Source of the DNA: Parasphingorhabdus sp.
GTDB lineage: Bacteria; Pseudomonadota; Alphaproteobacteria; Sphingomonadales; Sphingomonadaceae
Assembly (NCBI RefSeq): GCF_034669745.1
Contig: NZ_JAXMOP010000002.1
Length of the DNA stretch: 64,000 bases
Strand: one strand, 5' to 3'
Shown: piece after piece, positions 4,973 to 13,431 of the stretch
Numbering within the stretch: the first letter of the stretch is position 1
Layout of the letters: every line of letters starts with the position of its first letter
Position numbers and translations under genes: made by a program
The notes under the pieces: model-generated
The model's input: only the letters and a program-made list of their open reading frames with translations
What the model was told of the DNA's origin: nothing
The model's database searches: none

Positions 4973-7384
4973 TCACGCGGACAGCCGCGCCTCTTCCATT
5001 ACGCTGTCCAGCCAGATCGCTTCAAAAACATCGGGTGTAACGGGTTTTGAGATATGCCAGCCTTGACCGATATCGCACCCGTATCGGGTCAGCAGTTCCA
5101 GACATGGTTGATCTTCGATGCCCTCGGCCACGATCTTGAATCCTAACGCATGAGCCATTTTAATGGTGGATTTTACCATCACGCGATTGGCATTGTCGGT
5201 GGTCATGGTTTTGACGAAGCTTTGGTCCAGTTTGATTTCGCTGACAGGCAGGCGCTGCAAATAGCTCATCGTCGACTGGCCGGTACCATAATCATCGATC
5301 GACACTCTGATCCTCGCATTCTGGATAAGTTTCAGAGCGAAAGCTGATCGTTCCGGATCCGACATCGTTGCTGTTTCCGTGACTTCAAATACGATCTGTG
5401 CGTTGTCGACCCGGGCTTCTTCAACCATCGCAATCGCCCGGTGGACAAAGTCCTTGTCAGCCAAAAGTGTGGCCGAAATATTGACCGAGCAGGTTAGCCC
5501 TGGCCGCCGCCCACTCCAGCTGGCCACATCATCCAGCGCCAGCTGTAAAACATGATAGGTCAGTCCGTCGATCCGGCCGGCTTGCTCCAGCAAGGGAATG
5601 AAAATATCTGGGCTGATAATGCCACGCTCGGGATGATACCAGCGAACCAGTGCCTCCGCGCCATCAAGTCGATTTGCCGAAAGATCCCATTTGGGTTGAT
5701 AGACCACGCCAAGGTGCCCGTCTTCGAGTGCCTGATCCAGTTCAATCAGAAGATCATGCTTTTGTCCGATTGCATGATCGAATTTGTGATCGTGCCAAGT
5801 CCATCTGATTCCGGAGGCCAGTGCCTGCTCCGATGCGATTTTGGATTCATCCAGGGTCTGGCTGCTAATACCGAAAGTCATATCGACCTTGATCTTGGTT
5901 TCTTGTGCCATGATCGGAGCTTGTAGCAGCGCCGATGCGGTATCGAAATGACCCGGAATATTGGAAGTATATTCTTTCTTCACAAGCCATGCGATCATAT
6001 CTGAATCTACATGATAAATACTCTCGGATTGGGCGAGAAAACTAAAACGGCTAGCAAGATTTTGAAACAGATCATGGCGCGATTCCCTGTTGGTCAACAC
6101 CAGCAATTCACGGAAATTTACAAGCCGAGCTGCTGCGATATAACCAAAATCGCTCGTATCTATGATTTTTTGCAGGGCCGCTTCATTTGGCAGTCCGCTT
6201 ATTTCATTGACATATTGACTGGTTTTAAGCGCTGTTGTGGTGGTCAGCAATTTTTGCGAAAGCATGTAAACCGAGAGGAAGAAAAAGGCCGGAACATTGG
6301 AAAATGTGAACAGCCGTAAATATTCAACCAGAAGCAATAAGCCTACCAGTACGAAAATCGAGACAAAAGCAATCCAGATCAAGCCACGGGACGAGATTTT
6401 TCTTGTTGTTATGCAGACCAACATCAGGATGGCAGAGAGCAAGAGCGCAGGAAATTTTCCCAGGTCCCCCAAATTTGTTCCACTGATCAACGTTTCACTC
6501 GCCAACGCCTGTATAACAACGCCAGGGAGCACGCCAAAGCGGCTCATCGGATATCGATCACCCAATTCTATCGCGGTGGCACCAATCAGTATCTTTTTGC
6601 CCCGCAACTCGGGTGGCAAGTCATTCGAGTTGATCAGATCAACAAAACTTAGCCGCGGAATGGTTGTCGGATCGATGGATTGATCGATTGCAAAACTTTG
6701 ATCGATGTTGCCCGCTACTTCGGCGATCATGCTCGCCAGCGATGGACGCGTTGTCCCAGCTGTGGTCGTGCCATAGCTGTAGCGGTTCAGTTGGCCCCGA
6801 CTGTCCGGAGACACATTGACAGACGCCAGAAATGCATTTTTCTGCAAGACATCTATCGGCAGACTTTCAACAAATTCATGCTGTCCGTTTGAGGCGCGCT
6901 GGCGGAACGTAGGCAATATCACCGTTGCATCGGATTTATCTATCGCATCCGCTAGCAGCTGATCTTCGGTCTCGGTTGAGCGCGATGAGAAGTCTATATC
7001 GAATGCGATTAGCGTTACACCGGCATCATTCAGCTTTTCTATGGCTTTGGCATAATATGCGCGAGGCCACGGCCAGCGGTCTACCATTTCCAAAGATTTT
7101 GCGTCAATTTCGGCAATATAGACCTGACCGGATGCGGGCTTGGCGAGAATATTGGCCCGCACATCGCCCAATCTTTCTTCAACATCGAGGCCAACGTTGA
7201 CTGAGACCAGTGCAAGACCGGCCGTCAATGCCAATATCCATGGCAAGAATGTGAGGCGGAAGGCTGTTGCCCGGATAGAAGTTAATAAAGTCTTCAACAG
7301 TGTCTCCGCTCGTCGACCAGCGGCGCTTGTAATCCAGACCCATCTATTTTGCGTTAATGCAAATAATTCCTGAGTTTCAGGCAA
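4973..7384 (-). CDS. CHASE2 sensor domain / degenerate GGDEF / EAL c-di-GMP phosphodiesterase membrane protein
   Basis: 803 aa. An N-terminal TM helix is followed by a periplasmic CHASE2-like region (IAEIDAKSLE..WPWPR..IAFDIDFS), then three to four TM helices. The middle domain has SGLPNEAAL, but HVDSDMIAW replaces the GG(D/E)EF motif. The C-terminal EAL domain has intact motifs: EALVRW, EVTE, DDYGTG, KLD, EGIED, QGW. The start is a TTG without an obvious SD, so the start position is uncertain. Confidence 0.85.
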   Translation of the reverse strand: MPETQELFALTQNRWVWITSAAGRRAETLLKTLLTSIRATAFRLTFLPWILALTAGLALVSVNVGLDVEERLGDVRANILAKPASGQVYIAEIDAKSLEMVDRWPWPRAYYAKAIEKLNDAGVTLIAFDIDFSSRSTETEDQLLADAIDKSDATVILPTFRQRASNGQHEFVESLPIDVLQKNAFLASVNVSPDSRGQLNRYSYGTTTAGTTRPSLASMIAEVAGNIDQSFAIDQSIDPTTIPRLSFVDLINSNDLPPELRGKKILIGATAIELGDRYPMSRFGVLPGVVIQALASETLISGTNLGDLGKFPALLLSAILMLVCITTRKISSRGLIWIAFVSIFVLVGLLLLVEYLRLFTFSNVPAFFFLSVYMLSQKLLTTTTALKTSQYVNEISGLPNEAALQKIIDTSDFGYIAAARLVNFRELLVLTNRESRHDLFQNLASRFSFLAQSESIYHVDSDMIAWLVKKEYTSNIPGHFDTASALLQAPIMAQETKIKVDMTFGISSQTLDESKIASEQALASGIRWTWHDHKFDHAIGQKHDLLIELDQALEDGHLGVVYQPKWDLSANRLDGAEALVRWYHPERGIISPDIFIPLLEQAGRIDGLTYHVLQLALDDVASWSGRRPGLTCSVNISATLLADKDFVHRAIAMVEEARVDNAQIVFEVTETATMSDPERSAFALKLIQNARIRVSIDDYGTGQSTMSYLQRLPVSEIKLDQSFVKTMTTDNANRVMVKSTIKMAHALGFKIVAEGIEDQPCLELLTRYGCDIGQGWHISKPVTPDVFEAIWLDSVMEEARLSA

Positions 7385-7408
7385 ACGGGAGTATTCTGCA
7401 AACTGCGG

Positions 7409-8800
7409 CTAGTTTTCCATTTTTTTGCCGTTTCCGCCGCCATTGCCGTTTCCGCCGCCATTGCCGTTTCCACCGCCGTTGCCGTTTCCGCCGCCATTGC
7501 CGTTTCCGCCGCCATTGCCGTTTCCACCGCCATTGCCGTTTCCACCGCCGTTGCCGTTTCCACCGCCGTTGCCGTTTCCGCCGCCATTGCCGTTTCCACC
7601 GCCATTGCCGTTTCCACCGCCGTTGCCGTTTCCACCGCCGTTGCCGTTTCCGCCGCCATTGCCGTTTCCGCCGCCATTGCCGTCTCCGCCGCCATTGCCG
7701 TTTCCACCGCCATTGCCGTTTCCACCGCCGTTGCCGTTTCCACCGCCGTTGCCGTTTCCACCGCCGTTGCCGTTTCCACCGCCATTGCCGTTTCCACCGC
7801 CGGTATCGATTGCGCCGCCGTTGCCATTGCCACCGGCATTGCCATTACCATTGCCACCAGCATTGCCATTGCCGTTATCACCGGCATTGCCGTTACCATT
7901 CCCTCCAGCATTGCCATTGCCGACGTCATCCCCGCTGAAAGGATTTCCATTACCATTTCCTACCGCGCCCGGATTGCCATTGTTCAAACCGTTACCACCA
8001 CCCGCAAAGCCCGGTATAGATGGGTTCGATTCAGCCAATTTGGCCAAAACGTTTGCAGATTCACCATTGGTCACCAGACCACCGGTCAGATGGCTGAGCG
8101 AAACAGGAGTTTCCAGAACAGGTGCCGTGATGGTTCCTTCAAAAGCACCGTTGGCGATTTCGAGCAATGCGGTTTCATCCATGGGTTCCGGTGTGTCGGC
8201 ACTCCCGGCAGGAGCATTGGGTGAATCAATCGTCCGTGATTCAGATCCGGCGATGGTCAGACGAAATTGCTGGTCGCGATTGACCATACCGATCATTCCC
8301 GGAGACAATAATTGGGTCGCGCCGCCGTCGAGGGTAGATACCTGCACAGCGCCTTCGGTGACCTGAACTGCCGTCCCGGTTTCCGAAACAGTGACGCTGA
8401 ACGTCGTGCCTTTGACTACAGCTGCGAGATAGGGAGTATTTACACCGAAATGCGGTGTAGCCTTCTTGTCGATCCGAAACAGGACATTGCCGATTTCTTC
8501 AAAAAATTGAACAACACCGCCACTTTGCTTCGGTGCGCTTATTCGCAGTCGGCTGTTGGGTGAAACAACAACATATTCCTGTCCACGGACCAGAACCGCC
8601 CGGCTTTTATTCCCTGTGGTAACGATGTCGCCCGCGTTCAGACTGCCGCCGCTGATCGCAATTTGTGAAACGCCGGAGCGCAGAATATTAACTGTTCCGG
8701 TTCGTTCGGAAAGCTTCCACTCCGGAGTTCCCGCATGGGCAGTACCCGCCGCCATGATTGCGACAATTGCGAGGAATTTGTTCATTTTCTGTATCTTCAT
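7409..8800 (-). CDS. secreted FecR-domain protein with a very long Gly/Asn repeat tail, (GNGNGG)21
   Basis: 463 aa. It has a signal peptide (MKIQKMNKFLAIVAIMAAGTAHA/GT) and a FecR-like beta-rich domain (GDIVTTGNKSRAVLVRGQEYVVVSPNSRLRI ... VKGTTFSV..VTEGAVQV). From about residue 265 to 459 the protein is almost only G and N. It lies 24 nt upstream of the CHASE2-EAL gene on the same strand. Confidence 0.8.
   Translation of the reverse strand: MKIQKMNKFLAIVAIMAAGTAHAGTPEWKLSERTGTVNILRSGVSQIAISGGSLNAGDIVTTGNKSRAVLVRGQEYVVVSPNSRLRISAPKQSGGVVQFFEEIGNVLFRIDKKATPHFGVNTPYLAAVVKGTTFSVTVSETGTAVQVTEGAVQVSTLDGGATQLLSPGMIGMVNRDQQFRLTIAGSESRTIDSPNAPAGSADTPEPMDETALLEIANGAFEGTITAPVLETPVSLSHLTGGLVTNGESANVLAKLAESNPSIPGFAGGGNGLNNGNPGAVGNGNGNPFSGDDVGNGNAGGNGNGNAGDNGNGNAGGNGNGNAGGNGNGGAIDTGGGNGNGGGNGNGGGNGNGGGNGNGGGNGNGGGNGNGGGDGNGGGNGNGGGNGNGGGNGNGGGNGNGGGNGNGGGNGNGGGNGNGGGNGNGGGNGNGGGNGNGGGNGNGGGNGNGGGNGNGGGNGKKMEN
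7427..7804 (-). repeat. 18-bp tandem repeat x21 (GCCGTTTCC[G/A]CCGCC[A/G]TT), coding for GNGNGG units; a degenerate continuation runs to about nt 8010
   Basis: I aligned the units by hand at 7427, 7445, 7463 ... 7787. Three synonymous unit variants occur, plus one G->D unit at 7679-7696. The last unit has diverged. Confidence 0.95.
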
Positions 8801-8951
8801 TTGATCTACTCTGGTCAGTTTTAAAGCACTATTCCTGCTTATATGACGCTTTTATAGCTGCTCTATATGCTGATACCGTTTAGAAATAGGCTGAATATTC
8901 TGTAAACAACCAGACGCTAAGGAATTCCTAAGGATTTGACGCTAGAGCGAA

Positions 8952-10619
8952 TTGTTTTGTGTCCTGGAGTTGTTTGTGCATTCAGAAATAAAAATAGCGA
9001 TATGGACTCTGCTATTCTGCAGTTCTTCTGCCGCTTTTGCTCAGCAAGCCGGGAATCCCTTCGAAAGCGTGAGCAATCAGGGCGAGTGGACTGTTGGCGT
9101 GCCACCCGGAAATGATGTGGTAGCGCCGATCGTAGTCCGGGACGATAGTTTTCAACCCACCAGCGAAACACGTTCCATCACTATCGGTGCCGTCGCCGTA
9201 AAATCCGGACCTCAAATCCCGGCCGATGTGCTTGCCAGAAGTTACGAAAAATTCATCGGATTAGAAGCCAATGAAGATGTGCTCAGGGATCTCGCGAGTG
9301 CCGTATCGACCGCAGCCAGGAACAAGGGTTATATTTTCGCCAGCGCCCAAATTCCATCACAAGCGGTCAAAATAGGTATTGTCGAAGTCCTGCTGGATCC
9401 CGGCGCGATTGATGAAGTTCGGATCATCGGGTCACAGAATGGACGGCTCAGAAAAATTCTGGACAAGTTGCGCAGCCCGGCCGCCGTCTCACAAATCGTC
9501 GAACGACAATTATTACTCGCAGGCGACCTGCCCGGCATAACTCTGCTCAATACAAATTATCAGCGGGAAGATGGCAAAGGCGTGCTTATCGTTTCGGTGC
9601 GCGAAGACAAGGCCAGAGGGCATGTAGCTCTCGACAATTACGGTCCGGAAACTCTCGGTCCGGTCCGTATGCGTCTCGATCTGGACCTGACCGGCCTGTT
9701 GAGCGATAGCGATGTGCTGACCACCAATGTCATCAGCTCGGTTTTGCAACCGAAAGAACTGACCTATATATATTCGCGATATGCCATGACGCTTGGAGAC
9801 GGCGGAACAGTGATCGGACTGGCTGGTGCTGCCGGACGAACCCACTCTGGTGGCAATCTCGGTAATTTGGGCTTCCGGGGTCGAAATCGATACGCATCGA
9901 TCTTTGTCAATCATGCTGTGCAACGCAGCAACGACTTCAATTTGTGGCTCAACGCCGAACTTGCCTATCTTGATGTTGAACAATCACAAAATGGATCACC
10001 GTTCCAGGATGATCAGATCGCGACCGCTGCAGTGAATTTTTCAGGCAATTATAATGTCGGCATTGGCAGAATCTACGGTGGAATCGGCGTAACCCGGGGA
10101 TTGGGCATATTGGGCGCGAGCAGAAGCGGCGATCCCCTGAATTCCCGCACCGATGGCAGCGGTGAATTCACCAAGGCCAATTTTTGGCTCAACTCGATTC
10201 TGAACATGGGAGACGGTTTTGGCATGCGGTTGGCGGGCAATGCGCAAATAGCATCACGGCCATTGCTGTCTGCGCATGAGATCTCAATTGGCGGTGCCTA
10301 TTTCGGCAAAGGCTATGATTTCAGTGAACGATTTGGCGATGAAGGCATCCTCGGCCTGGCTGAATTGCGCAAGGAGTTTAACGACGTCAATCCATGGCTG
10401 GACTGGTTCCAGCTCTATACATTTGTTGACGGCGGTTATGTTTCCAATATCGGAACAGGATTTGGTGACGGGTCGCTGCTATCTGCTGGCGGCGGCTTGC
10501 GCTCCCAGATCGGCAGATTCGATCTGGGTATCGAAGCTGCCGCTCCGGTGGGCACCGATCGTTTTGAAAGCGGCGACCGGTCACCGAAAATCAATGTTCA
10601 AGTCGGATTACGCTTCTAG
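8952..10619 (+). CDS. ShlB/FhaC/HecB-family (TpsB-like) POTRA-containing outer-membrane beta-barrel
   Basis: 555 aa from the TTG at 8952. An in-frame GTG at 8976 gives a cleaner signal peptide (HSEIKIAIWTLLFCSSSAAFA/QQ). It has a POTRA-like region (IVEVLLDPGAIDEVRIIG...RQLLLAGDLPGI), a ShlB-type barrel, and a C-terminal ...VQVGLRF with terminal Phe. It is divergent from the FecR gene. Confidence 0.8.
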   Translation: MFCVLELFVHSEIKIAIWTLLFCSSSAAFAQQAGNPFESVSNQGEWTVGVPPGNDVVAPIVVRDDSFQPTSETRSITIGAVAVKSGPQIPADVLARSYEKFIGLEANEDVLRDLASAVSTAARNKGYIFASAQIPSQAVKIGIVEVLLDPGAIDEVRIIGSQNGRLRKILDKLRSPAAVSQIVERQLLLAGDLPGITLLNTNYQREDGKGVLIVSVREDKARGHVALDNYGPETLGPVRMRLDLDLTGLLSDSDVLTTNVISSVLQPKELTYIYSRYAMTLGDGGTVIGLAGAAGRTHSGGNLGNLGFRGRNRYASIFVNHAVQRSNDFNLWLNAELAYLDVEQSQNGSPFQDDQIATAAVNFSGNYNVGIGRIYGGIGVTRGLGILGASRSGDPLNSRTDGSGEFTKANFWLNSILNMGDGFGMRLAGNAQIASRPLLSAHEISIGGAYFGKGYDFSERFGDEGILGLAELRKEFNDVNPWLDWFQLYTFVDGGYVSNIGTGFGDGSLLSAGGGLRSQIGRFDLGIEAAAPVGTDRFESGDRSPKINVQVGLRF

Positions 10620-11035: not shown

Positions 11036-11261
11036 TCCTCAAATAAGGGTCCCTTATAGCATGATTGGATTTCGGGAGCGAAGCAGATTCATGAATTGTC
11101 TGATCAGAAAATATCGTTTGGAATCAGAGGGATATGCGCAATTTCAGAGTGTTGATTTTTTGCCCGCTCGATATATCAGCGGCTACCGGCTTCGACTCGC
11201 GGCCAAAATCATATTGGGGGTTGCATCCGGATCGAATTTAGGAGAATGAAGCGCCAGATAT

Positions 11262-11440
11262 CGGGTTTCTCTTAATTGAGAATTCAAAGGGAAATCGGTG
11301 AGGAAAGGGTTTGCGCCCAATTCAAATCCGGTACTGCCCCCGCAACTGTAAGCGGCTAGCCGATATGCCACATGCCACTGGATCTCACGATCTGGGAAGG
11401 CGGCATATCTGCAGCGATCCGCAAGTCAGGAGACCTGCCC
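11262..11440 (+). promoter_or_regulatory. cobalamin (B12) riboswitch upstream of btuB
   Basis: The conserved core is readable: AAAGGGAAATCGGTGAGG...CAAATCCGGTACTGCCCCCGCAACTGTAAGCGG. The B12 box GCCACTGG is followed by CTGGGAAGGCGGC and a 3' ...GTCAGGAGACCTGCC. It ends about 95 nt before the btuB ATG. The boundaries are approximate. Confidence 0.85.
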
Positions 11441-11535
11441 TATGTCGTCGTTCTTCAGCCGGACGGGGTGTGTCGGGTGAACGGGGTTTTCCCCTGCGTA
11501 GCGGCAATTTATGTCGTTAACAAAAGGGAATCCTA

Positions 11536-13431
11536 ATGTATAAATACCGAATTTTCGTCACATTGATGGCATCCTCTGCATATTGCTGCGCGGTTCCGGC
11601 CGTGGCCGCTGATGACGATCGCGAGATCATCGTTACCGCCACCGGCATCGAACAGGATATCGAGGATACCGGCGCTGCAATCTCGGTCCTGACCGAAGTC
11701 GATATTCGCGATCAGCAATCCATCACCCTTTCCGCGATCCTGCAGGAACTTCCAGGCGTCAACGTCACCCAGAGCGGTGGATTGGGTTCGCAGGCATCGG
11801 TTCGTATCCGCGGGGCAGAAAATGACCAGACGCTGGTGTTGGTCAATGGCATAAGGGTCAATGATCCCTCGACACCCGATGGCTCTTTCGATTTCGGTAA
11901 CCTGCTCGCCGGCAATATCGAACGTGTCGAAGTGTTGCGCGGTGCGAGCGGCGTGACCTGGGGAAGCCAGGCGGTTGGCGGCGTGGTCAATATCACCACC
12001 AAAAGACCGACCGAAGATCTTACCCTGTTTGCTCAAGGTGAATATGGCGCGAACGATACGGTGCGGCTGGTCAGCAATGCCTCGGGCAAATTCGGACCGG
12101 TTGGACTGAGCATCGGTGGTGGCTATGCCCGAACCGACGGCATCAGCGCATATTCCGGCGGTTCCGAACCGGACGGGTATCGCCAATATTCGGCTTCAGG
12201 TCGCTTGCTCGTCGATATCACCGATGCCATCCGTTTCGAAGCCAGCGGCTATTACGCCGACAGCAGAGTCGACAATGACAACGTCTTCCCGCCGTATAGT
12301 TCCGATGACAGCCAGTTTTCGCTGGCACAGGAAGTCTATGGCAACGCCAGCATTCATGTTGCTGCGCTGGACGGGCGTTTCCAGAATCGATTTGCCTTCA
12401 GCATTGCCGACATCAACCGTGACATCATCAGCCCCTCTTTCACTTCCCGCCCCAGAGGACGGACGGAGCGGTTCGAATATCGTGGCGATCTGGCCGTGAT
12501 CGAGCAATTGCGCCTGGTCTTCGGGGCGGAAAAGGAAGACAGCCGCTATGAAAACAGCGGTGTGTCGGACTCGACCGGGATCGATTCCTTCTTCTTCCAG
12601 GCCGTGCTCAAACCGGCTGACGGACTCACTCTGACCGGCGGGATCCGGCACGACCAGCATGCGGATTTCGGCGGCAATACCAGTCTGGCTGGCAATCTGG
12701 CCTATCGGCTTGGCGCAGATGGTCCTACCATCCGGGCGAGCTATGCTGAGGGCTTCAGGGCTCCTTCCCTGATCGATCTTGACGACCGCCCGTTCGGCTA
12801 TGGCACGCCGGATTTGGTGCCGGAAACCGCAAAATCTTACGAGATCGGTATTGATCAGTCACTGATCGGACAGGCGGTGCAGGTCGCGGTGACGCTTTTC
12901 CAGCGGGACACGCTCAATCAGATTGCCTTCGCTGCTTGCCCGGTCGCACCGGATCCTGCGCCGGAAGTCTGCACGAACGGCAGTCGGCCCTACGGCACGA
13001 CCTTGAATATCGAGAGCAACCGCACCCGCGGCGTGGAGGCGATCTTGTCGATTGCTCCGTTTGAACGACTGCGGATCGACGCCAATTATACCTGGCTGGA
13101 CACCGAGAACCGGTCTGCCGGTGCCAATTTCGGCAATGAACTGGCGCGACGGCCAGCGAGCAGCCTCTATCTCAATGCCAGCTATCAAACCAGCTTCGGG
13201 CTGAGCCTTGGTGCGGACCTGCAGATGATCGGCGACAGTTTCGATGATCTGGCCAACAACCGCCGCCTCGATGGCTTTGCGCTTGCCGGAGTCCGGGCGA
13301 ACCTCCCGCTGACCGAGGGCATCGAAATTTTCGGACGTATCGACAATCTGTTCGATGTAAACTATGAAACGGCCACTGATTTTGGCTCTCCGGGACGTTC
13401 GGCTTATTTGGGAGCGCGGGCGCGTTTCTGA
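11536..13431 (+). CDS. btuB: TonB-dependent outer-membrane vitamin B12 receptor
   Basis: 631 aa with a signal peptide, a TonB box (DREIIVTATG), a plug domain (VRIRGAENDQTLVLVNGIRVND) and a barrel ending in ...YLGARARF. It lies directly downstream of a cobalamin riboswitch. Confidence 0.85.
   Translation: MYKYRIFVTLMASSAYCCAVPAVAADDDREIIVTATGIEQDIEDTGAAISVLTEVDIRDQQSITLSAILQELPGVNVTQSGGLGSQASVRIRGAENDQTLVLVNGIRVNDPSTPDGSFDFGNLLAGNIERVEVLRGASGVTWGSQAVGGVVNITTKRPTEDLTLFAQGEYGANDTVRLVSNASGKFGPVGLSIGGGYARTDGISAYSGGSEPDGYRQYSASGRLLVDITDAIRFEASGYYADSRVDNDNVFPPYSSDDSQFSLAQEVYGNASIHVAALDGRFQNRFAFSIADINRDIISPSFTSRPRGRTERFEYRGDLAVIEQLRLVFGAEKEDSRYENSGVSDSTGIDSFFFQAVLKPADGLTLTGGIRHDQHADFGGNTSLAGNLAYRLGADGPTIRASYAEGFRAPSLIDLDDRPFGYGTPDLVPETAKSYEIGIDQSLIGQAVQVAVTLFQRDTLNQIAFAACPVAPDPAPEVCTNGSRPYGTTLNIESNRTRGVEAILSIAPFERLRIDANYTWLDTENRSAGANFGNELARRPASSLYLNASYQTSFGLSLGADLQMIGDSFDDLANNRRLDGFALAGVRANLPLTEGIEIFGRIDNLFDVNYETATDFGSPGRSAYLGARARF

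Follow-up and report, generated by a model that had tools for sequence, protein, structure and literature searches.

The CHASE2 domain was defined about twenty years ago, and in the CHASE2 literature no established direct ligand or mechanism was found described, the sole functional lead being NsrA of Sinorhizobium meliloti. In this bacterium the CHASE2 cyclases CyaK, CyaD1 and CyaD2 need NsrA for their signalling (PMC7529298, PMC13001267). The beta-barrel of NsrA lies at residues 600-1200 (PMC7529298), and its acidic loops have been proposed to bind the basic protein uL2. The pairing of FecR-domain proteins with CHASE2 sensors has already been reported for Burkholderia and Campylobacterota (PMC5192318, PMC9239204). 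Here, a locus at positions 4973-10619 of a 64-kb stretch of Parasphingorhabdus sp. DNA (contig NZ_JAXMOP010000002.1, assembly GCF_034669745.1; the whole stretch is called the window) was analysed, in which a TpsB-type outer-membrane barrel, an exported FecR-domain protein and a CHASE2-EAL membrane protein are encoded side by side.

A reading made from the letters of the window (the sequence-only reading) had taken these three genes for an undescribed envelope-spanning sensory module. No paper was found joining CHASE2 with ShlB, FhaC, POTRA or two-partner secretion, and nothing on this arrangement was found joining FecR with EAL or cyclic di-GMP (c-di-GMP), POTRA or two-partner secretion. The word "undescribed" thus holds for the trio with its TpsB barrel, but not for the FecR-CHASE2 pairing inside it.

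Results

Conservation of the trio

An open reading frame (ORF) check of the window located the three ORFs at the coordinates given by the sequence-only reading, and their domains were borne out by Pfam, apart from the degenerate GGDEF domain, which was recovered by profile comparison only. For the neighbourhood scan, one genome per species was used, the barrel alignment was narrowed after a wider set (with Bosea, Azospirillum and a canonical TpsB) proved too diverse, and neighbours were called with custom-built hidden Markov models. The scan yielded 44 loci, all in Sphingomonadales. For the source organism, Sphingorhabdus and Parasphingorhabdus were the closest named relatives. A divergent FecR gene stood beside 41 of the 43 barrels with at least 700 bp upstream, and the CHASE2-EAL gene was also present in 29 of the 30 loci with at least 5 kb upstream. 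In three loci at 44-62% barrel identity the same order was kept (FecR followed by CHASE2-EAL on one strand, ShlB diverging from them) within unrelated flanks.

Two complete trios, 650 kb apart, were present on one 1.6-Mb contig, and a second paralogous clade was found with its own barrel type and its own Asp/Gly-rich tail type, indicating that the module duplicates and diverges as a whole. The same divergent trio was also found in Bosea sp. Tri-49 and in three Bradyrhizobium-type loci, where the sensor is a CHASE2-PAS-GGDEF-EAL protein and the FecR proteins carry Gly/Asn (G/N) tails. The three genes are thereby confirmed as one conserved unit, inherited and duplicated together in many alphaproteobacteria. 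A lack of co-occurrence in other genomes, which would have spoken against the sequence-only reading, is clearly not what was seen, and chance adjacency is excluded because the synteny is conserved.

The contig with two trios (JBDWUT010000016.1, GCA_039984275.1; loci L004 and L069) is labelled Marinomonas. Its trio proteins are 59-62% identical to those of Sphingomonadales, and the label or the binning may be wrong.

The barrel as a structural TpsB

Pfam matched the barrel protein to POTRA_2 and ShlB (6e-20). A signal peptide (AFA/QQ) opens the protein, some 45 disordered residues follow, and two POTRA domains then lead into a barrel of about 16 strands; the AlphaFold2 (AF2) model had a predicted template-modelling score of 0.72. 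Foldseek placed CdiB (6wim, 2.3e-25, template-modelling score 0.64) and FhaC (4ql0, 3e-20) ahead of BamA and TamA. The L6 motif reads FGRGYDF in most homologues, with K replacing R in the window protein and its closest relatives, and the inner-wall motif FVDGG is conserved. With two POTRA domains, about 16 strands and both motifs, the modelled barrel is, in structural terms, assigned to the TpsB family.

The canonical TpsBs taken as controls adjoin giant FHA-type genes. At the trio locus no TpsA with a TPS domain was found and the 64-kb window holds no TpsA-sized ORF, in agreement with what the sequence-only reading had stated for the locus; the ten other longest ORFs scanned (470-864 aa) all match housekeeping or transport families. 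Since the protein has the structure of a TpsB but no TpsA partner was found in the window, the trio does not qualify as a two-partner secretion system.

The FecR-domain protein, its motif and its tail

The 463-aa protein is built, in order, of a signal peptide, the FecR domain, a linker, a conserved motif, the G/N tail and a short basic tip (GKKMEN). The N-terminus is signal-peptide-like, and Pfam matched FecR with an E-value of 3.7e-10. In the AF2 model of the N-terminal part, pLDDT was mostly 84-96 over aa 28-192, with a dip at aa 91-130 (55-79). The Foldseek matches of this domain included the periplasmic domain of a Bacteroidetes anti-sigma factor (4m0n, 1e-6) and the C-terminal signalling domain of PupR crystallised with PupB (6ovk_R, 5e-5), and the model accordingly points to an anti-sigma/PupR fold, not a TPS beta-helix. 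Through a weak NCBIfam match, the FecR domain is linked to Lsa33, a surface adhesin of Leptospira.

The short motif between the FecR domain and the tail reads ETPVSLSHLTGGLV in the window and GEVRLNVHRVTHGLA in Bradyrhizobium. Written as the pattern [VIL]x[VILF]xx[VILAMT][TS]xG[LM][VAI], it was carried 30-78 residues past the FecR domain by 49 of the 50 FecR proteins linked to a barrel and by none of eight barrel-less FecR partners, two of which are Rhizobium proteins with G/N tails; the background was 2 matches in 646,000 aa of other ORFs. A search of 1.84 billion representative proteins returned 299 FecR-protein clusters at E<=1e-30, and the strict pattern was present in 78 of 137 long cluster representatives, the inspected failures being mostly variants such as LTGGLIEG. 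The motif is kept from Sphingomonadales to Bradyrhizobium, while the surrounding linker, of low confidence in the AF2 model, and the tail are not. Conservation of the motif within an otherwise free-running linker is solid, and the motif is a candidate docking or recognition site for the barrel.

The tail, which the sequence-only reading had put at about 195 aa and which was found to span about 197 residues, consists of 45% G and 24% N, and an 18-bp tandem repeat (7425-7843; 23.3 copies, 91% matches) codes for it. In homologues the tail is 115-659 aa long and always of low complexity, being G/N-, D/G- or P/A/V-rich by clade; the tails of Bradyrhizobium are likewise G/N-rich. A basic C-terminal tip was seen in 28 of 40 tails, which is a trend only. 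Ten of the 44 genome contigs break inside the tail repeat (L012, L015, L020, L021, L026, L029, L035, L036, L038 and L042), so that many database entries for the FecR protein are partial, and the copy number of the repeat is probably variable.

The CHASE2-EAL protein, a predicted phosphodiesterase

In the 803-aa ORF, Pfam detected CHASE2 (aa 59-303, E 1.7e-30) and EAL (aa 548-781, E 1e-65). The order of elements is a first transmembrane segment, the periplasmic CHASE2 domain, three transmembrane segments, the degenerate GGDEF domain and the EAL domain. Hydrophobic segments were located at aa 13-33, 279-297 and 306-324 (numbering of the 774-aa product), together with a weaker fourth, and the protein has the topology of a CHASE2 transmembrane sensor, with one span before CHASE2 and three after it.

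The Pfam search of the sensor gave no GGDEF match. When a profile of the linker (the 160 residues ahead of the EAL domain, aa ~394-540; 14 homologues) was compared with PDB, GGDEF domains were matched (3mtk at 3.7e-7, 5m3c, TpbB and DosP). The linker, which has the customary SGLPNE at its beginning, is a degenerate GGDEF domain, in line with the sequence-only reading; cyclase activity is not expected because the GGDEF signature is replaced by DSDMI. The catalytic motifs of the EAL domain are complete in the window protein, and the catalytic Asn was recognised by eye in CSVNIS. Over 41 CHASE2-EAL proteins, mostly trio partners with three from barrel-free loci, four of six EAL motifs were present in 41/41, ExTE in 39/41 and QG in 40/41. 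The domain is thus predicted to be an intact c-di-GMP phosphodiesterase.

FecR-CHASE2 pairs and the architecture of NsrA

Eleven replicon loci were picked, non-randomly, for taxonomic spread (nine via CHASE2, two via the barrel), and in nine of them the CHASE2 gene is immediately preceded by a gene for a FecR-domain protein. LysM-FecR proteins accompany CHASE2 kinases in Burkholderia, Ralstonia and Novosphingobium, FecR alone or FecR-TPR accompanies CHASE2 cyclases in Microvirga, Methylocystis and Sinorhizobium, and FecR with a G/N tail accompanies CHASE2-GGDEF-EAL in Rhizobium and Bosea. This distribution suggests that the FecR-CHASE2 pair is the general arrangement and the barrel an add-on.

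The architecture of NsrA was reconstructed from the pSymB sequence and PMC7529298. In S. meliloti 1021, nsrA is a 1219-codon ORF ending exactly at the start of cyaK, with a FecR domain at aa 85-179 and TPRs at aa 397-606. NsrA is a FecR-TPR-barrel fusion, which means that the only CHASE2 system with functional data holds the same three elements as the trio; the precedent named by the sequence-only reading is closer than had been stated there. The barrel fragment of strain R11 gave a Pfam match to a TonB-dependent-receptor barrel (4e-8), the intact 1021 NsrA gave no Pfam barrel match at E<=0.001, and tblastn with the window barrel as query gave no match in pSymB of S. meliloti. By these comparisons the NsrA barrel does not look like a TpsB, and on the R11 match and the tblastn result the barrel component has been supplied at least twice, from different families.

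In strain R11 (L009, 2406-5956) the nsrA frame is split into a 721-aa FecR-TPR ORF and the 308-aa barrel fragment. The counterpart in strain 1021 (L068, 2177-5836) is unbroken, and the split in R11 is a frameshift or pseudogene, or a sequencing error.

Locus layout, gene starts and base composition

The coordinates of the features are listed in Table 1. For the barrel gene the sequence-only reading had left two starts, 8952 and 8976, of which the GTG at 8976 is the most likely because the resulting 547 aa matches the homologue lengths and GGAG lies 7 nt upstream. For the CHASE2-EAL gene the most likely start is TTG 7297, with a product of 774 aa, because most homologues are 774 aa long and GGAG lies 6 nt upstream. 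The gap from the FecR stop to this start is then about 111 nt, and the 24 nt given earlier is probably to be replaced.

Table 1. Positions of the trio genes, their domains and motifs in the window
Feature	Coordinates	Strand	Remarks
CHASE2-EAL gene	4973..7297	(-)	probable start TTG 7297; longest ORF to 7384
EAL domain (predicted intact)	5042..5743	(-)	EALVR577, EVTE667, DDYGTG697, IKLD717, AEGIE753, GQGW773
Degenerate GGDEF domain	5765..6205	(-)	opens SGLPNEAAL; signature DSDMI
CHASE2 periplasmic domain	6476..7210	(-)	aa 59-303 of 803-aa ORF
FecR-domain gene	7409..8800	(-)	463 aa
Gly/Asn tail	7412..8002	(-)	aa 267-463, mostly (GNGNGG)n
VSLSHLTGGLV motif (candidate docking site)	8072..8104	(-)	aa 233-243
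FecR-fold beta domain (modelled)	8225..8719	(-)	aa 28-192, AF2 + Foldseek
Intergenic spacer, candidate divergent promoter region	8801..8975		GC 0.383
TpsB-type barrel gene (probable start)	8976..10619	(+)	547 aa
Two POTRA domains (modelled)	~9189-9569	(+)	AF2: two beta-alpha-alpha-beta-beta units
Barrel, ~16 strands (modelled)	9576-10616	(+)	AF2
L6 motif GKGYDF	10305-10322	(+)	
Inner-wall motif FVDGG	10422-10436	(+)	

The AT-richness of the trio noted in the sequence-only reading is genuine and unevenly spread. With a GC content of 0.499, the CHASE2-EAL gene is the lowest 2.4-kb stretch in the window (mean 0.560, sd 0.022), while the values were 0.527 for the barrel gene, 0.531 for the FecR N-terminal part and 0.612 for the GC-rich repeat tail. 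The remaining genes of the window are chromosomal housekeeping genes (topoisomerase I, RNase R, ProRS, methylmalonyl-CoA mutase and others), and no mobility genes adjoin the trio. The accessory origin that had been drawn from the base composition is weakly supported, because of the housekeeping surroundings, the lack of adjoining mobility genes and the conservation across an order, despite the lower GC.

The spacer holds a direct repeat, CTAAGGA-N4-CTAAGGA (8917-8934), some 40 bp ahead of the barrel start. It occurs nowhere else in the window and was found without change at the corresponding place of five related loci (L012, L013, L016, L019 and L023). It looks like a binding site of a regulator for the divergent promoters and is put forward as a candidate. 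A second conserved spacer block (CGTTTAAAA...CTGAATATTCTGTAAAC) lies directly upstream of this repeat. Promoter and terminator consensus scans of the locus gave matches at chance level only, no Rfam family was found in the trio or its spacer, and NCBIfam held no specific family for any of the three trio proteins.

Beyond the barrel gene, a cobalamin riboswitch was found at 11246-11456 (+) (Rfam RF00174, 126.8 bits, E 1.9e-32), directly upstream of a TonB-dependent receptor gene at 11536-13431 (+). This gene is for B12-regulated uptake; it has no relation to the trio and is not kept beside it elsewhere.

Other settings of the barrel and of CHASE2

The label "heme:hemopexin-binding protein" is often given to components of two-partner secretion. 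In Caulobacter crescentus, the "CHASE2 membrane receptor" CCNA_00635 was down-regulated together with its neighbours CCNA_00636-00639, annotated as a hypothetical protein, a TPR protein and, twice, "heme:hemopexin-binding protein" (PMC11724286, Table 1). This cluster may be another link of CHASE2 to two-partner secretion.

On a plasmid of Azospirillum ramasamyi (L005, 3779-8425), a ShlB-type barrel gene begins 27 nt past the end of a gene for a CHASE2 adenylate/guanylate cyclase. This locus was rejected as an instance of the same trio, its upstream 241-aa exported protein being without FecR similarity and its barrel grouping with canonical TpsBs; it may represent an independent coupling of a TpsB-like barrel with CHASE2. 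On plasmid pMc1192 of Mesorhizobium ciceri (L008, 4600-12167), a ShlB-type barrel gene is flanked by genes for a serine hydrolase, two AmpH-type peptidases and an M23 peptidase. Without a TpsA, this locus is another non-canonical setting of the barrel family.

Discussion

Proposed mechanism of the trio

The trio is interpreted, as the most likely reading and with about even confidence, as one envelope-spanning signalling module, a split, TpsB-based variant of the NsrA type with c-di-GMP hydrolysis as the output. All protein contacts, the placing of the tail, what the signal is and which way the response runs are inferred. The inner-membrane protein would sense via its periplasmic CHASE2 domain, its EAL domain would hydrolyse c-di-GMP, and the degenerate GGDEF domain would serve as a non-catalytic linker or regulatory domain. 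The exported FecR protein would be the partner of the CHASE2 sensor, a contact that is proposed because the two are generally paired and because NsrA offers a parallel. The POTRA domains of the barrel may recognise the motif of the FecR protein, and the barrel may hold the unfolded tail or thread it toward the cell surface, while the folded FecR domain would remain in the periplasm, touching CHASE2. Events at the surface or outer membrane, such as a ligand on the tail or on the barrel loops, or failed export, would shift the FecR-CHASE2 contact, and the shift would alter phosphodiesterase activity and hence a c-di-GMP-controlled behaviour.

A more specific form of this proposal is offered as a tentative possibility only. 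A TpsB barrel would have been recruited to signalling, recognising the motif of a FecR protein that lacks a TPS domain and exporting solely the disordered tail as a surface tether, and the state of the tether (bound, pulled or unexported) would be read by the FecR domain and passed to the CHASE2 phosphodiesterase.

Several observations weigh against a single signalling module. Two Sphingomonadales barrels (L041 and L050), the exceptions among the 43 scanned, stand alone in other contexts. In the neighbour-joining tree the trio barrels of Sphingomonadales and Bradyrhizobium were not united against canonical TpsBs (34 of 200 bootstraps), and a single origin of the trio barrels of both orders apart from canonical TpsBs is not shown by this tree. 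Residues 13-65 of the barrel model, the plug-helix region, have pLDDT <50, giving no confident plug helix. Two Rhizobium FecR proteins (L010 and L056) have G/N tails with neither an adjacent barrel nor the motif, which indicates that the tail has no strict need of this barrel. The correlation between motif and barrel is suggestive only, as the pattern was written after the sequences had been viewed and is confounded by relatedness and ancestry. Finally, the FecR fold is N-terminal, where a TpsA has its TPS domain, and secretion of the whole protein is possible.

Alternative explanations

This last point leads to an explanation in which the barrel exports the entire FecR-G/N protein as a secreted or surface cargo, for example a sticky or matrix protein, and the co-expressed CHASE2-EAL protein reports build-up of cargo in the periplasm or couples c-di-GMP to its display, without an outside signal reaching it by way of the barrel. 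Export of unfolded proteins is what TpsBs do, and the barrel has their structure; its putative substrate has a signal peptide, an N-terminal folded domain like the TPS domain and a long unfolded tail from a variable tandem repeat, as is typical of surface-exposed proteins, and the weak NCBIfam link to Lsa33 would also suit this explanation. The FecR domain, however, lacks the TPS beta-helix fold. FecR partners accompany CHASE2 even where no barrel is present, indicating that the primary link of the FecR domain is to CHASE2, and NsrA has its FecR domain joined to its barrel on the periplasmic side and active in signal perception. Export of the whole protein as cargo is thus considered unlikely.

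An explanation that keeps the signalling role and dispenses with export was also weighed, in which the barrel loops or pore perceive or admit an external macromolecule, and the FecR protein stays fully in the periplasm and bridges the POTRA domains and CHASE2, its G/N tail being a flexible periplasmic spacer or a ruler of the peptidoglycan or envelope. It draws on the proposed binding of uL2 by the acidic barrel loops of NsrA, on the G/N tails retained by the barrel-less Rhizobium FecR proteins, and on the LysM or TPR parts of other FecR partners, which are periplasmic modules. A TpsB-type barrel with conserved L6 and inner-wall motifs nevertheless suggests real translocation, and tails that are hypervariable and range from 115 to 659 aa are ill-suited to a ruler of fixed span, which makes a purely receptive barrel improbable.

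That the barrel serves a TpsA elsewhere or some other function and merely shares a divergent regulatory region with the other two genes is very improbable, for although two orphan barrels of the same clade, FecR-CHASE2 pairs without barrels and TpsB-like barrels adjoining other kinds of genes (e.g., the serine hydrolase in Mesorhizobium) would suit it, the divergent layout holds in 41 of 43 loci and across orders while the flanks change, the trio duplicates as a unit, barrel-linked FecR proteins share a motif that barrel-less ones lack, and no TpsA was found in the window.

Significance of the trio

An outer-membrane barrel is found together with a FecR domain and CHASE2 more than once, the barrels coming from at least two unrelated families and the outputs differing, and this recurrence points to a general principle of trans-envelope sensing. 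The trio is compact, occurs in culturable genera (Parasphingorhabdus, Bosea and Bradyrhizobium), and its predicted output, c-di-GMP, is easily measured; together with a sharply defined motif that can be mutated, this makes the CHASE2 question directly testable. If a tether formed by export of the tail alone were true, it would be the first physical mechanism of CHASE2 sensing and the first case of a TpsB that takes a non-TPS substrate and serves in sensing, and the roles of TpsBs would extend past the export of TPS-domain proteins.

Comparison with known systems

In the RcsF-BamA/OMP-IgaA system of enterobacteria, a disordered segment of the exported protein RcsF is threaded through a barrel, and the folded domain of RcsF can reach an inner-membrane sensor upon disturbance of the outer membrane. 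For the trio this is a working analogy only, with no homology, and RcsF differs in being a lipoprotein, in using general porins loaded by BamA as its barrels and in having a phosphorelay as output.

The FecR/PupR periplasmic domain touches an outer-membrane protein and relays to the inner membrane. The trio shares the fold of this domain with the FecA-FecR-FecI and PupB-PupR-PupI systems, but its FecR protein has neither a cytoplasmic anti-sigma domain nor a membrane anchor, the signal peptide standing straight before the FecR domain. The locus also contains no extracytoplasmic function (ECF) sigma factor and no TonB-dependent transducer with a signalling domain, and the output of the trio is a second-messenger enzyme. 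The FecR protein does not qualify as a FecR-type sigma regulator.

With the two-partner secretion pairs FhaC/FhaB, CdiB/CdiA and ShlB/ShlA (type Vb), the trio barrel has in common two POTRA domains, about 16 strands, the L6 motif (V/G)(R/K)G(Y/F) and the inner-wall motif FxDxG. In contrast to these systems, no TpsA with a TPS domain lies adjacent or in the window, and the sole exported neighbour has a FecR fold.

The "BiofilmReg" arrangement of Burkholderia (PA4035-type; PMC5192318) likewise has an exported FecR protein encoded directly upstream of a CHASE2 sensor. It differs in having a peptidoglycan-binding LysM module instead of the motif and tail, no outer-membrane barrel, and a kinase with a response regulator as output.

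In NsrA-CyaK of S. meliloti (Sorroche 2020, PMC7529298), an outer-membrane barrel is encoded with a FecR domain and an inner-membrane CHASE2 enzyme, as in the trio. For NsrA, genetics shows that an external signal is perceived only when the barrel protein is present. FecR domain and barrel form one polypeptide in NsrA and are encoded by two genes in the trio; NsrA has TPRs where the trio has the motif and G/N tail, the window proteins being without TPR; and the output of NsrA-CyaK is cyclic AMP synthesis, whereas that predicted for the trio is c-di-GMP hydrolysis. On this comparison the nearest studied system to the trio is NsrA-CyaK and not two-partner secretion, and what is new here relative to the NsrA kind is the splitting of the genes, the TpsB-type barrel, the putative docking motif with its hypervariable tail and the predicted c-di-GMP output.

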